A DNA stretch of 64,000 nt from NCBI RefSeq assembly GCF_988242995.1, contig NZ_OZ547043.1, one strand, 5' to 3'. The position numbers were made by a program, and so were the translations under genes. Of the stretch, positions 1 through 4,420 are shown in pieces. Numbering within the stretch: the stretch's first letter is position 1; each line of letters opens with the position of its first letter. A model generated the notes under the pieces. It had not been told where the DNA came from. It ran no database searches and saw only the letters and a list, made by a program, of their open reading frames with translations.

Positions 1-1312
1 CCGCTTTAACCCAGCCACGATGCTGCTGAATGGCGGTTTCAACAATCGCCAGCCCCAAACCTGTACCGCCAGATTCACGATCGCGTGCTTCATCGGTACG
101 ATAGAACGGACGGAAAATCTGTTCGCGATCTTCCGGGCTAACGCCAGGACCATCGTCGTCCACCGTAATGGTGATACCGTCTTTATCTACCGCAAAGCCC
201 ACTTCAATCTTCGTATGGGAATAACGCAGGGCATTACGAACAATGTTTTCCAGCGCACTCTCCAGGGCGTTCGGGTTGCCGTACAGCGGCCACGGCCCAG
301 GCGGGAAGTTAACCGTCAACGACTTGCCCATTTGCTCGGCTTCGAACGCCGCGTTATCCAGCACTTCGCCCCACAACTGGTTAGCTTTCAATGTCTCGCT
401 TACCAGCGCGTTTTTCTGCTGATTACGTGACATCACCAACAGATCGTTAATCATGCTGTCCAGACGTTGCGCTTCGGTTTCAATACGCTCCAGTTCCTTG
501 CTTTCACCGCTACGACGGCGCAGTAACGCCGTACCCAGTTGCAGACGCGTCAGCGGGGTGCGCAGCTCGTGAGAGATATCAGAAAGTAGACGCTGCTGAG
601 AGGTCATCATGCGCTCCAGCGCGGTGACCATCTGGTTAAAACTGGCACCGGCGGCAAGGAATTCCTGTGGCCCCGCTTCCAGTTCCGGGTGCTGACGTAA
701 GTTTCCCTGGGCAACTTCATCGGCAGCGTTTTTCAGCTTACGCGCCGGTTTTGCCAGACTCCAGGCCAACCACAACAGCAGCGGCGTACTGACCAACATG
801 GTGACAATCAGCAGTAATAGCGGGCGGTCAAACAGTAAGTTAATGAAATCGGATTGAGAACTGCTGGCCGGACGAATCAGATAAAGTTGGTAATTATCTT
901 CGCCATCACGCACTGAGAACGGACCGACCAGTTCCACGCGGCCATACTTTTTCTTCTGCGGATGATCGGCGTTATCGGCCTGACCAATAAAGTTACGAAT
1001 GATCTGCATTTCGCTGCGTTCAGCGCCGATCACGCGGCCCTCGGTGGTCACCAATAACAAACGCTGTCCTGGCGGTGCCCACTTATCAATCGCCCGGAAC
1101 AGACGCCGCCACCACATTAAATCGTTGGGCGGATCGTTCGCCAGCTCCGCTTCGACATGCTGCTCAATCATCAGACCCTGACGCTGTTCGCTATCCAGAA
1201 GCTCGGTCATCTGGCGTGAATCGAGCTTGGGTAACATCAAAACCAACATCAACACCAGCGCCAGCGTCAGCCAGAAGATGGCGAAGATGCGCGCGGTTAA
1301 GCTGCCTATCAT
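1..1312 (-). CDS. cpxA: Envelope stress sensor histidine kinase CpxA, 3' end truncated by window edge (about 20 codons missing)
   Basis: Reverse translation from 1312 gives MIGSLTARIF...; window start reverse-translates to ...GLAIVETAIQQHRGWVKA; start overlaps cpxR stop as in the cpxRA operon. Confidence 0.93.
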   Translation of the reverse strand, partial: MIGSLTARIFAIFWLTLALVLMLVLMLPKLDSRQMTELLDSEQRQGLMIEQHVEAELANDPPNDLMWWRRLFRAIDKWAPPGQRLLLVTTEGRVIGAERSEMQIIRNFIGQADNADHPQKKKYGRVELVGPFSVRDGEDNYQLYLIRPASSSQSDFINLLFDRPLLLLIVTMLVSTPLLLWLAWSLAKPARKLKNAADEVAQGNLRQHPELEAGPQEFLAAGASFNQMVTALERMMTSQQRLLSDISHELRTPLTRLQLGTALLRRRSGESKELERIETEAQRLDSMINDLLVMSRNQQKNALVSETLKANQLWGEVLDNAAFEAEQMGKSLTVNFPPGPWPLYGNPNALESALENIVRNALRYSHTKIEVGFAVDKDGITITVDDDGPGVSPEDREQIFRPFYRTDEARDRESGGTGLGLAIVETAIQQHRGWVKA

Positions 1313-2007
1313 GAAGCAGAAACCATCAGATAGCCGCGACCACGCAAGGTTTTAAACCACGGGTGACCATCTTTACGATCCGGCAGTTTACGACGCAGGT
1401 TGGAAATGTGCATATCAATAGCGCGGTCGAAAGGCGTCAGGCGTTTGCCCAGCACTTCCTGGCTTAAATGTTCACGGGAAACTACCTGACCCAGATGCTG
1501 TGCCAGCAAATAGAGCAGGGTAAACTCAGTACCGGTTAACTCCAGCGTTTGCCCGTCGAAGCTGGCTTCCTGACGGCCTGGATTTAGCACTAAGGCATCA
1601 ACTTCCAGTGTCGGTGAACCGTTGTCGTTGTTTTGCTGTTGCTCGCTCCAGTGCGAACGGCGCAGGATCGCGCGAATACGTGCCACCAGCTCACGATCAT
1701 TAAACGGTTTCGGGAGATAGTCATCTGCGCCCAGCTCAAGGCCGAGAACGCGATCAAGTTCACTGCCGCGCGCCGTCAACATAATGACAGGCGTCTGGTG
1801 TGTCTGGCGAAGTGCTTTTAATGTGTCGATACCATTTTTCTTCGGCATCATTACATCAAGCAAAAGTAAATCAATGCTGTCGTCCAGAAGATCAAGCGCC
1901 TGTTCCCCATCGTGGGCAACAATCACGTTGAAGCCTTCCATCTCGAGCAGCTCCTTTAATAGGGAAGTCAGCTCTCGGTCATCATCAACTAACAGGATTT
2001 TATTCAT
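1309..2007 (-). CDS. cpxR: Response regulator CpxR (232 aa)
   Basis: ORF MNKILLVDDDRELTSLLKELLEMEGF... recognised as CpxR; operon with cpxA. Confidence 0.97.
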   Translation of the reverse strand: MNKILLVDDDRELTSLLKELLEMEGFNVIVAHDGEQALDLLDDSIDLLLLDVMMPKKNGIDTLKALRQTHQTPVIMLTARGSELDRVLGLELGADDYLPKPFNDRELVARIRAILRRSHWSEQQQNNDNGSPTLEVDALVLNPGRQEASFDGQTLELTGTEFTLLYLLAQHLGQVVSREHLSQEVLGKRLTPFDRAIDMHISNLRRKLPDRKDGHPWFKTLRGRGYLMVSAS

Positions 2008-2062
2008 TGTTTAAATACCTCCGAGGCAGAAATTACGTCATCAGACGTCGCTAATCCATGAC

Positions 2063-2077
2063 TTTACGTTGTTTTAC
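2063..2077 (-). promoter_or_regulatory. CpxR box (GTAAA-N5-GTAAA) in the divergent cpxR/cpxP promoter region
   Basis: Plus strand TTTACgttgtTTTAC, i.e. GTAAA-acaac-GTAAA on the minus strand. Confidence 0.6.
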
Positions 2078-2156
2078 ACCCCCTGACGCATGTTTGCAGC
2101 CTGAATCGTAAACTCTCTATCGTTGAATCGCGACAGAAAGATTTTGGGAGCAAATG

Positions 2157-2657
2157 ATGCGCATAGTTACCGCTGCCGTCATGGCCTCAACGCTGGCAGT
2201 CAGTTCATTAAGCCACGCTGCTGAAGTCGGTTCAGGCGATAACTGGCATCCGGGTGAAGAACTTACGCAGCGCAGTACGCAGAGCCATATGTTCGACGGC
2301 ATAAGTTTAACCGAACATCAGCGTCAGCAGATGCGAGATCTTATGCAACAGGCCCGGCACGAACAGCCTCCTGTTAATGTTAGCGAACTGGAGACAATGC
2401 ATCGCCTTGTCACCGCAGAAAATTTTGATGAAAACGCTGTGCGCGCACAGGCAGAAAAAATGGCGAATGAGCAAATTGCTCGTCAGGTTGAGATGGCAAA
2501 AGTCCGCAACCAAATGTATCGCCTGTTAACGCCGGAGCAGCAAGCGGTTTTAAATGAGAAACATCAACAACGAATGGAGCAGTTGCGTGACGTGACGCAA
2601 TGGCAAAAAAGTTCATCGTTGAAGCTATTGAGTAGTAGCAACTCACGTTCCCAGTAG
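2157..2657 (+). CDS. cpxP: Periplasmic Cpx-pathway adaptor/chaperone CpxP (166 aa)
   Basis: [24 protein letters not shown]...; start taken at second Met of the track ORF. Confidence 0.95.
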
Positions 2658-2664
2658 TAAACCC

Positions 2665-2724
2665 TGTTTTCCTTGCCATAGACACCATCCCTGTCTTCCC
2701 CCACATGATGTGGGGGTTTTTTTT
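2665..2724 (+). ncRNA. cpxQ: CpxQ-like 3'UTR-derived sRNA of cpxP, ending at an intrinsic terminator
   Basis: About 60 nt after the cpxP stop ends in GC hairpin cccccacatgatgtggggg (2698..2716) plus T8 (2717..2724); CpxQ is known to be cut from the cpxP 3' end; 5' end position is inferred. Confidence 0.5.
2698..2724 (+). terminator. Rho-independent terminator of cpxP/CpxQ
   Basis: Perfect 5-bp GC stem with 9-nt loop followed by TTTTTTTT. Confidence 0.75.
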
Positions 2725-2736
2725 GTGCACAGAAAA

Positions 2737-2755
2737 CCCCCAGCTAGGCTGGGGG
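2737..2755 (+). repeat. IS200 left subterminal hairpin (8-bp stem, 3-nt loop)
   Basis: cccccagcTAGgctggggg, a perfect inverted repeat. Confidence 0.6.
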
Positions 2756-2867
2756 TTCCGGAAAGCTTTCAGCTTTGAGCCAGTTATTAAAACCCCTTTT
2801 GATTTGTTAAAACACCTTGCGGTCTGGCAACTGCAAGTGTCAAACAAGAAATCAAAAGGGGGTCCCA

Positions 2868-3326
2868 ATGGGGGACGAAAAGAGCTTAGCGCACACCCGC
2901 TGGAACTGTAAATATCACATAGTTTTTGCGCCGAAATACCGAAGACTGGCGTTTTACGGAGAGAAGCGTAGGGCGATAGGCAGTATTTTGAGAAAGCTGT
3001 GTGAGTGGAAAAGCGTACGGATTCTGGAAGCAGAGTGCTGCGCAGATCATATCCATATGCTTGTGGAAATCCCACCCAAAATGAGCGTATCCGGCTTTAT
3101 GGGATATCTGAAAGGGAAAAGCAGTCTGATGCTTTACGAGCAGTTTGGGGATTTGAAATTCAAATACAGAAACAGGGAGTTCTGGTGCCGAGGGTACTAT
3201 GTCGATACGGTGGGTAAGAACACGGCGAAGATACGTGACTACATAAAGCACCAGCTTGAAGAGGATAAAATGGGGGAGCAGTTATCGATTCCATATCCGG
3301 GCAGCCCGTTTACGGGCCGTAAGTAA
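2868..3326 (+). CDS. tnpA: IS200 transposase TnpA (Y1 HUH single-strand transposase, 152 aa)
   Basis: MGDEKSLAHTRWNCKYHIVFAPKYRR...DHIHMLVEIPPK (HuH motif)...YIKHQ (catalytic Tyr); the 17 upstream codons of the track ORF are 5'UTR. Confidence 0.93.
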   Translation: MGDEKSLAHTRWNCKYHIVFAPKYRRLAFYGEKRRAIGSILRKLCEWKSVRILEAECCADHIHMLVEIPPKMSVSGFMGYLKGKSSLMLYEQFGDLKFKYRNREFWCRGYYVDTVGKNTAKIRDYIKHQLEEDKMGEQLSIPYPGSPFTGRK

Positions 3327-3407
3327 CGAAGTTGAATGCAAATGTCAGATCGTATGCGCCTGTTAGGGCGCGGCTGGTAACAGAGCCTTACAGGCGCATT
3401 TGAAAAA

Positions 3408-3426
3408 CCTCCGGCTATGCCGGAGG
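3408..3426 (+). repeat. IS200 right subterminal hairpin (8-bp stem, 3-nt loop)
   Basis: cctccggcTATgccggagg; same architecture as the left hairpin; followed by an AT-rich tract. Confidence 0.55.
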
Positions 3427-3517
3427 ATATTTATTTATCCTCAATTTGCCTGCTGCTTAATGCATTGCAGATGATTTGCTTCCGTTATACTAGCGTCAGT
3501 TGATAGCGGGAGTATTT

Positions 3518-4420
3518 ATGAATCAATCTTATGGACGGCTGGTCAGTCGGGCGGCGATTGCTGCAACGGCGATGGCTTCACTGCTATTGCTGATTAAAAT
3601 TTTTGCATGGTGGTATACCGGGTCGGTGAGTATTCTCGCCGCGCTGGTGGATTCGCTGGTGGATATCGGCGCGTCGTTGACGAATTTACTGGTGGTGCGA
3701 TATTCCCTGCAACCTGCCGACGATAATCACTCGTTTGGTCACGGTAAAGCTGAGTCCCTCGCGGCGCTGGCGCAAAGTATGTTTATCTCCGGTTCGGCAC
3801 TATTCCTCTTTTTGACGGGTATTCAACATCTGATATCTCCAACACCGATGACAGATCCAGGCGTCGGGGTAATCGTGACAATTGTGGCGCTAATTTGTAC
3901 GATTATCCTTGTCTCGTTTCAGCGGTGGGTGGTGCGCCGGACGCAAAGCCAGGCGGTGCGGGCTGATATGCTACATTACCAGTCTGATGTTATGATGAAC
4001 GGCGCAATTCTGCTGGCGCTGGGGTTGTCCTGGTATGGCTGGCATCGCGCCGATGCTCTGTTTGCATTGGGAATCGGCATCTATATTTTATATAGCGCGT
4101 TACGCATGGGATATGAGGCGGTACAGTCATTACTGGATCGCGCATTGCCTGATGAAGAACGGCAAGAAATTATTGATATCGTGACTTCCTGGCCGGGTGT
4201 TAGCGGCGCTCACGATCTTCGCACGCGGCAGTCAGGGCCGACCCGCTTTATTCAGATTCATTTGGAAATGGAAGACTCTCTGCCTTTGGTTCAGGCACAT
4301 ATGGTGGCGGATCAGGTAGAGCAGGCTATTTTACGGCGTTTTCCGGGATCGGATGTGATTATCCATCAGGACCCCTGTTCCGTCGTACCCAGGGAGGGTA
4401 AACGGTCTATGCTTTCATAA
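3518..4420 (+). CDS. fieF: Cation-efflux (CDF family) Fe/Zn transporter FieF (300 aa)
   Basis: [50 protein letters not shown]...; start after 6 upstream codons of the track ORF. Confidence 0.95.

Follow-up and report, generated by a model that had tools for sequence, protein, structure and literature searches.

Our analysis revealed that the insertion between cpxP and fieF in the window, i.e., the whole 64,000-nucleotide stretch of contig NZ_OZ547043.1 (assembly GCF_988242995.1) that was analysed, is a complete and ordinary IS200, a minimal member of the IS200/IS605 family. The explanation that best accounts for the observations, and which we regard as very probable, is that of a complete and probably transposition-competent element that occupies the canonical target of its group, with small local consequences. 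This canonical target of IS200-group elements comprises a GC hairpin and, behind it, a T-rich tract that ends in TT. Since the U-tract of a terminator is a habitual landing site of the group, the position of the element behind cpxP is its signature and not a coincidence. A place right behind a terminator is typical for such an element and not surprising, a point that was missed when the DNA was first read from its sequence.

That sequence-only reading had described a complete IS200-like element with an intact tnpA at 2725-3435, located right after the U-tract of the cpxP terminator and about 80 bp upstream of fieF, in an interval said to be IS-free in K-12. All of these points were borne out by comparison with empty and filled sites. 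In the alignment of the cpxP-fieF interval with K-12 MG1655 the site was empty, and the uninterrupted sequence GGGGG-T8-ATCCTC was likewise present in the K-12-like strain KLY and in TUM1886; these clean empty sites indicate a simple insert of 711-712 bp without target duplication. Apart from one ambiguous T, the insert is the sole difference between the filled and the empty sites, and it moves the fieF upstream region about 0.7 kb away from cpxP, as had been claimed. The inserted block begins with GTGCACAG at position 2725 and ends with ...GGATATTTATT at position 3435, and its right flank consists of T and ATCCTCAATTTGCC (T+ATCCTC...), continuing up to the fieF ATG at 3518, i.e., 82 bp from the end of IS200. 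The flanking T's leave an uncertainty of 1-3 T in the exact boundary; among the 12 other IS200 copies compared, the base that follows ...TTATT differs (T, G, C or A), which sets the right boundary at 3435 and defines the element as 2725-3435, the same limits as in the first reading. One T is unexplained: in the window the IS is preceded by T8 and followed by a single T, but only T8 is present in the empty sites. This extra T reflects either slippage in the T-run or an element of 712 bp, with the boundary off by one nucleotide. Copies that are 100% identical over 711-712 bp were found at other loci, where the similarity stops at the same bases; thus, the element in the window is neither truncated nor chimeric.

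In MG1655, cpxQ is annotated as a non-coding RNA of 58 nt that extends up to and including the final T of T8, so IS200 adjoins the annotated 3' end of cpxQ exactly. When compared to MG1655, CpxQ of the window carries a single change in the loop (C>A at 2708), which is common to TUM1886 and GN02461. Rfam matches to NsiR1 and anti-hemB at 2679-2724 were weak (E = 0.4-0.7) and were dismissed as generic terminator look-alikes. The features of the locus and the basis of each assignment are listed below.

Table. Coordinates, strand and basis of the features at the cpxP-IS200-fieF locus of the window
Feature	Position	Strand	Basis
cpxR	1309-2007	-	ORF list and sequence reading
cpxP CDS, upstream gene co-oriented with the IS	2157-2657	+	ORF list; RefSeq annotation of the corresponding region of GN02461, KLY and MG1655
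CpxQ sRNA region (cpxP 3'UTR), structure targeted by the IS	2667-2724	+	MG1655 ncRNA cpxQ annotation; terminator scan; DNA fold
cpxP/CpxQ terminator	GC hairpin 2698-2716, then T8 2717-2724	+	terminator scan; DNA fold
IS200 element, 711 bp, boundary +/-1 nt (flanking T's)	2725-3435	+	empty-site alignments; identical copies at other loci
Left-end perfect hairpin, AACCCCCAGC-TAG-GCTGGGGGTT	2735-2757	+	fold; Rfam STnc490 alignment
Putative art200 antisense region	2787-2876	-	coordinates inferred from the Salmonella description (PMC4513863) and the near-identical sequence and structure here
tnpA mRNA 5'UTR stem-loop, pairing the Shine-Dalgarno region (AAAGGGGG)	2793-2861	+	fold; Rfam STnc490
tnpA, 152-aa Y1 (HUH) transposase, intact ORF	2868-3326	+	ORF list; Pfam; NCBIfam; PDB relatives
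Right end: A5 (3403-3407), hairpin CCTCCGGC-TAT-GCCGGAGG (3408-3426), 9-nt T-rich tail ATATTTATT (3427-3435)	3403-3435	+	terminator scan; fold
fieF-proximal upstream region, 82 bp, identical to MG1655	3436-3517	+	alignment
fieF CDS	3518-4420	+	ORF list; annotation of GN02461 and MG1655
pfkA	from 4601		ORF list

The transposase of the element was identified by its matches to Pfam Y1_Tnp (E = 8e-37) and to NCBIfam transpos_IS200 (NF033573; 144 bits, cutoff 55), as well as by its relatives in the PDB, i.e., 2ec2, 2f4f, the IS608 TnpA structures 2a6m/2vhg (E about 2e-19) and the ISDra2 TnpA structure 2xm3 (E = 2e-15). Its HUH motif is H61-I62-H63 and the candidate catalytic tyrosine is Y110 within RGYYVDTVG; both align with the solved TnpA structures. 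The ORF list contained no second reading frame with any family signal within IS200. Assignment to the REP-associated tyrosine transposases was considered and rejected, with a score of 29.8 bits against a cutoff of 80 for NCBIfam NF047646 and with flanks that consist of a gene terminator and the fieF upstream region, not of REP/BIME arrays.

Upstream of tnpA, the left-end hairpin is preceded by a 10-nt leader, GTGCACAGAA, with GAAAA directly 5' of the hairpin. It corresponds to nt 12-34 of IS200, which have been described as a bidirectional terminator (Ellis et al., PMC4513863), and by analogy with IS608 it is presumably also bound by TnpA. The same study described nt 69-138 as a 5'UTR stem-loop that represses the translation of tnpA, together with the antisense RNA art200 (PMC4513863). 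A full-length match to Rfam STnc490 (RF01405) was detected at 2735-2858, with 146 bits versus a gathering score of 56. By analogy with that system, tnpA of the window is expected to be nearly silent, through the combined action of the 5'UTR stem-loop and art200 (PMC4513863); the caution of the first reading that the element may be silent is thus appropriate. The hairpin at the right end has a stem of 8 bp with a dG of -10 kcal/mol (z = -3.7) in the fold, and the terminator scan found this end to be terminator-like on both strands. The right-end hairpin is kept in Yersinia, Edwardsiella and Tatumella, and in Vibrio its stem shows a compensatory change, CCACCGGC/GCCGGTGG in place of CCTCCGGC/GCCGGAGG. 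Terminal inverted repeats were not found, the two ends of IS200 matching at 8/30 positions, which is the level expected by chance. Judged from its sequence, the window copy is probably competent for transposition, and TnpA would be predicted to move it as a single-stranded DNA circle, given its homology to the IS608 and ISDra2 enzymes, the strand bias described below and what the abstracts of two reports state (PMC5027513, PMC3597680).

The same variant was detected at six further sites, where copies with 99-100% identity sit behind ytfL, ccmH, a bhsA-like gene, purL, fdnI and recA; the copy downstream of fdnI, in strain E26, is 99.7% identical. A TnpA protein of exactly the same sequence is encoded at several other loci of public assemblies. 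At all six sites the upstream gene is co-oriented with tnpA, and GTGCACAG adjoins a GC-rich hairpin and a T-rich tract ending in TT, with the same spacing as at cpxP. The presence of near-identical copies at several loci supports the suggestion that this variant has been active recently.

For a broader survey of junctions, one genome per species was scanned for the left-end hairpin, which gave at least 120 loci among the matches listed. Once non-IS matches and duplicates had been discarded, the matches listed comprised 115 distinct left junctions; these came from about 25 genomes and had all been selected for an identical left-end hairpin sequence. They originated from Y. pestis (IS1541, n = 42), Vibrio ruber (n = 17), Brenneria, Edwardsiella and Tatumella, and further from Mailhella and Desulfovibrio MAGs, MAGs of Bacillota and of Peptococcaceae, Oxalobacter and others. 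To pass the strict hairpin test, a flank needed a stem with 5 or more contiguous pairs and 3 or more GC pairs, a loop of 3-9 nt, and a hairpin foot within 12 nt of the junction. Among these junctions, which are survivors and to whose terminator bias selection could have added, 100/115 (87%) passed the strict test, in comparison to 12.5% of controls matched for the T-pentamer and 15.8% of intergenic T-pentamers (binomial p about 2e-63 against the intergenic rate). When 40-nt flanks were folded, a dG of -8 kcal/mol or lower was reached by 114/115 IS junctions, in contrast to 23% of the matched controls and 23.3% of the intergenic T-pentamers, with a mean dG of -18.2 kcal/mol for the IS junctions versus -5.7 for each of the two comparison sets. 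The distance from the hairpin foot to the junction ranged from 0 to 11 nt with a mode of 6. The last five bases of the flank, tallied for 102 junctions, were most often TTTTT (59), followed by TTATT (14) and TTGTT (10); junctions were placed by a rule, a T followed by G/A located 9-12 nt before the hairpin, and because of this rule the statistic that flanks end in TT is partly circular, while the hairpin statistic is unaffected.

Two additional observations came from the same junctions. At three loci of Y. pestis, IS1541 copies are arranged in tandem, with the left end of the second copy directly on the right end of the first (...TTATT, as in GGATATTTATT), which means that the right end of the element itself serves as a target. 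Furthermore, a positive GC skew on the IS top strand prevailed, with 72 sites against 23 with a negative skew (p = 5e-7); for the + strand of the window it was +0.028. This skew agrees with insertion into the lagging-strand template, although the bias in gene orientation acts as a confounder. A preference for the lagging-strand template is known for the IS200/IS605 family. All sampled subfamilies have A-rich bases before the hairpin and T-rich targets in common.

The preference for terminators is known in outline and not new in kind; here it is sharply quantified, IS200-group elements being located almost solely right behind terminator hairpins. In 1998, Odaert et al. (J Bacteriol 180:178) reportedly found terminator-like stem-loops at 8/14 IS1541 sites and proposed them as possible hot spots. 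Our literature search for an explicit IS200 target rule returned only a 2025 preprint on terminator enrichment. Terminator-like sequences upstream of insertion sequences have been found to be strongest for the IS200/IS605 family (bioRxiv 10.1101/2025.07.22.666184).

The enrichment could in principle arise through survivorship and not through targeting, if insertion took place at any T-rich pentamer and only the copies in the neutral gap behind terminators persisted. In its favour, only fixed insertions are represented in the data, those that disrupted genes or promoters would be lost by selection, and the classic hisD984 insertion of IS200 lay inside a gene (PMC4513863). We nevertheless consider survivorship an unlikely sole cause, although it deserves more weight than the other alternatives discussed below. 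A hairpin precedes only 15.8% of intergenic T-pentamers versus 87-99% of the IS junctions. In addition, the junctions keep close to the hairpin foot and are not scattered through the neutral space downstream, the tandem copies target the hairpin and tail of the right end itself, and the same nucleotide of the cpxP terminator was used by two IS200 variants. Survivorship may add to the bias; however, the tight distance to the hairpin and repeated insertion at the same nucleotide are not easily explained by it.

With target choice by the element as the preferred reading, we propose that IS200 would have entered in single-stranded form, directly behind the T-tract (on its 3' side) of the cpxP/CpxQ terminator, the top strand of the element lying on the strand that bears the T-run. 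The target resembles in shape the right end of the element itself, which consists of an A-run, an 8-bp GC hairpin and a 9-nt T-rich tail ending in TT. TnpA would select the site directly, with the A-rich stretch on the 5' side of the left-end hairpin acting as a guide that pairs with the T-rich target. According to the IS608 paradigm, each hairpin is preceded on its 5' side by bases that pair both with the cleavage site and with the target. If an A-run served as such a guide in IS200, this would explain both the T-rich target and a right end that finishes with TTATT. The target hairpin would contribute in some manner, possibly as a mimic of the right end or by exposing the adjacent T-tract on single-stranded DNA. 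The tandem IS1541 copies, the compensatory change in the Vibrio stem and the GC skew fit this proposal. A further idea, in which the target terminator acts as a pseudo-right-end that supplies its own A-run guide on the 5' side, was rejected for this site, where the cpxP hairpin is preceded by TGTCTT.

Extending this to the whole group, we lean slightly towards the view that IS200-group transposases directly recognise intrinsic terminators, in the form of a GC hairpin and a T-tract on the single-stranded lagging-strand template, as a structural mimic of the right end of the element. If this is true, every rho-independent terminator would be a potential landing pad with a fixed orientation, from Enterobacterales and Vibrio to Desulfovibrionaceae and Bacillota, and the cpxP/CpxQ terminator, apparently struck twice by two IS200 variants, would be one example. 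Target choice would then be guided by structure, unlike the rule of a 4-5-nt motif that applies to IS608 and ISDra2, and this would explain the innocuousness of IS200 as well as its persistence. IS200 would thereby offer a simple system in which structure-directed target choice by a Y1 transposase can be tested.

Comparison with known systems places the element among its closest relatives. Like IS200 of Salmonella and E. coli, it is about 710 bp in length (~707-711 bp) with a 152-aa Y1 transposase as its sole gene, has hairpins at nt 12-34 and nt 69-138 with a full-length STnc490/art200 match, and shows neither inverted repeats nor target duplication. It is 95.9% identical to the copy in GN02461 of a sister variant that NCBI names IS200C, and 99.7% identical to copies that are annotated only as 'IS200/IS605 family'. 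IS1541 of Y. pestis and Y. pseudotuberculosis has the same left-end hairpin and the same right end as the window element, and all of its sampled copies are located behind a hairpin and a T-tract; its leader is GTGCCCAGAA, in contrast to GTGCACAGAA in the window. A genome can contain dozens of IS1541 copies, some of them as tandem dimers, whereas IS200 in E. coli has a median of 2 copies.

The better-studied 'peel and paste' paradigm, i.e., IS608 of Helicobacter pylori and ISDra2 of Deinococcus, has a TnpA homologous to that of the window and subterminal hairpins. As in IS200, the element inserts on the 3' side of a short target motif, which its left end adjoins, and the strand bias is consistent with the lagging-strand template. 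Unlike IS608 and ISDra2, IS200 lacks tnpB; its target is a T-rich tract behind a hairpin and not a fixed TTAC or TTGAT, and the distances from the cleavage site to the hairpin differ, being 10 nt at the left end and 9 nt at the right end here. The pairing of guide and target proposed above for IS200 is modelled on the IS608 paradigm. TnpA_REP and the REPtrons (PMC3333891, PMC8266576) are similar in that a Y1 relative deals with extragenic GC-rich hairpins; there, however, the repeats are processed by a domesticated enzyme, whereas IS200 uses ordinary gene terminators as landing sites.

With regard to the neighbouring genes, the CpxQ body, the terminator hairpin and the T8 run are intact, and the DNA is changed only downstream of the U-tract. 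The promoter scan found no consensus promoter in 2000-3700, neither one for fieF nor a hybrid created by the IS, and no outward promoter-like site at the right end of IS200. In the literature, a 'promoter of fieF' downstream of CpxQ has been mentioned (PMC4817254), and a promoter has been located in the fieF/pfkA spacer, not upstream of fieF (PMC3946193). For the window, the fieF promoter is presumed to lie within 3436-3517. The anatomy suggests that IS200 would be transcriptionally insulated by the hairpins at both of its ends, and any transcript that reads through from cpxP would now run into the terminator of the left end and the hairpin of the right end. Given the intact terminator, the unchanged 82 bp, the hairpins at both ends and the lack of an outward promoter-like site in the scan, the effects on fieF and CpxQ expression are probably small, with little or no phenotype, as far as can be judged from anatomy.

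It has to be considered whether the insertion is instead regulatory or adaptive and was retained for that reason, by altering the expression of fieF, for example through the removal of upstream elements or of read-through from the Cpx-induced cpxP transcript, or by altering the termination of CpxQ. The insertion does set cpxP and fieF 0.7 kb apart and replaces the sequence right after the U-tract, and RNAs derived from the IS200 5'UTR act in trans in Salmonella (PMC5435999; bioRxiv 10.1101/2024.06.26.600842). We regard such a role as improbable. The terminator hairpin, T8 and the fieF-proximal region are unchanged, no promoter-like site has been created, and hairpins insulate both ends; the extreme rarity of the insertion in the species argues against selection for it, and the site is simply a canonical IS200 target. 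With small local effects as the favoured reading, the locus itself is of very little consequence, and the insertion is of use as a strain marker. It indicates that an IS can reside at the terminator of CpxQ with no visible harm to CpxQ or fieF, and the habit of settling next to terminators helps in annotating IS200 boundaries. By the same habit, 3'UTR-derived sRNAs with strong terminators would be preferred neighbours of IS200.

The first reading had regarded the insertion as a strain-specific event, which agrees with our survey of 5,426 complete E. coli genomes, a set that does not include the source genome of the window. An IS between cpxP and fieF was present in 1/5,426 of them, GN02461, and belongs to a different variant; the window variant at this site is shared with no complete E. 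coli genome. IS200 in general is far from rare: 2,641/5,426 of these genomes contain matches, at up to 35 places per genome (median, 2). TUM1886, the complete genome closest to the window, is 99.5% identical over 20 kb and has an empty site. When JGI metagenome contigs were scanned for exact matches to the right junction, consisting of the IS right end and the fieF upstream sequence, 0 matches were obtained.

IS200 has often been assumed to be old and immobile, and the window copy could accordingly be an inert relic. This has little probability here, with 100% identical copies (711-712 bp) present at several chromosomal sites in different assemblies, with the ORF and both ends intact, and with the insertion absent from the closest complete genome.

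In GN02461 the element, annotated as IS200C, has the same position and orientation as in the window. The two elements differ at 29/711 positions, spread over positions 53-667 (95.9% identity), and the flanks have diverged by about 0.9% across 24 kb, the nearest mismatches being located at 2588 and 3565. The T-run on the left is T8 in the window and T7 in GN02461. The economical reading of these comparisons, and the one to which they point, is that of two independent events at the same nucleotide, since a common ancestral insertion would need loss in nearly all other E. coli as well as conversion of the whole element. A single ancestral insertion, with one copy later overwritten by gene conversion, would account for the equal site and orientation and for the 130 bp that are identical on each side, but it is highly improbable for strains about 0.9% apart over 24 kb when 5,424 other complete genomes, including TUM1886, are empty, when 29 differences that span positions 53-667 would call for conversion of the whole IS, and when the left T-runs are unequal. 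Between the tnpA genes of the window element and IS200C of GN02461 there are 24 nucleotide differences and only 5 amino acid differences, which indicates purifying selection on the transposase.

The cpxP terminator has been entered by IS200 in another E. coli strain as well. GN02461 carries a copy there that shares with the IS200 of the window both the exact insertion nucleotide and the orientation, and that belongs to a different variant, IS200C, with 29 differences in 711 positions; the two strains themselves are about 0.9% divergent. On sequence comparison, the GN02461 insertion looks like an independent repeat hit on this terminator. The T-run is divided as T8 + 1 around the element in the window and as T7 + 1 in GN02461, and it counts T8 at the empty sites of MG1655, KLY and TUM1886. 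The one T by which the window exceeds the empty sites stems from either homopolymer slippage or a 1-nt shift of the boundary.

The terminator loop of CpxQ, the sRNA from the cpxP 3'UTR, reads ATGATGT in the window versus ATGCTGT in MG1655. TUM1886, whose site is empty, and GN02461 carry the allele of the window, so that the difference reflects polymorphism between lineages and has nothing to do with the IS.

Features at the cpxP terminator and the positions of their matches
Feature	Sequence	Position	Strand
Rfam RF02628 (Hrs1) match	window	2652-2724	-
Variable base of CpxQ terminator loop	window	2708	
T8 left of IS200	window	2717-2724	
Single T right of IS200	window	3436	
IS200C copy of GN02461 (L001 / L134)	NZ_CP095533.1	about 491.9-492.7 kb	

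CpxQ lies exactly where the window matches the Rfam model of Hrs1 from Erwinia amylovora on the opposite strand, at 44.5 bits (below the gathering score of 56.4). Since hrs1 is located between cpxP and fieF in Erwinia and is co-oriented with both genes (PMC4070566), Hrs1 is probably the Erwinia orthologue of CpxQ. The stored model appears to be antisense; its consensus starts with an A-run and a hairpin, i.e., the reverse complement of a terminator.

The left end of IS200 was searched for as a 23-nt hairpin with two loop bases left free. Among the matches listed, it is identical outside these bases in IS200-like elements (loci L014-L089) whose very distant hosts include Bacillota, Peptococcaceae, Saccharibacteria and Elusimicrobiaceae MAGs, Mailhella/Desulfovibrio and Oxalobacter. 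Such identity points to conservation of unusual strength or to horizontal transfer over a wide range of hosts, and MAG contamination may contribute to it; many of the distant-host copies are located at contig ends. In Dickeya (L044, L068, L070) and Mangrovibacter (L043), the IS200-type leader GTCTATAGAA and the left-end hairpin AACCCCCAGCCAGGCTGGGGGTT follow a host terminator with no IS200 body 3' of them. Each of these four loci may represent either a left end left behind on its own or a miniature derivative of the element.

In Yersinia pestis NCTC5923 (L091, L092, L094), copies of the IS200-group element IS1541 are arranged in head-to-tail tandem. Within a tandem, the tail ...GGATATTTATT at the right end of one copy borders immediately on the left end of the next; the right end of IS1541 evidently serves as an insertion target itself. 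Two further loci carry the same IS200 variant with the same narP region on its right; on the left, L005 (GCA_964045655.1) has ccmH and L007 (GCA_005384585.1, BFLQ01000020.1) has purL. This mixture of flanks suggests either that two IS200 copies recombined, inverting or deleting several hundred kb, or that the draft was misassembled.
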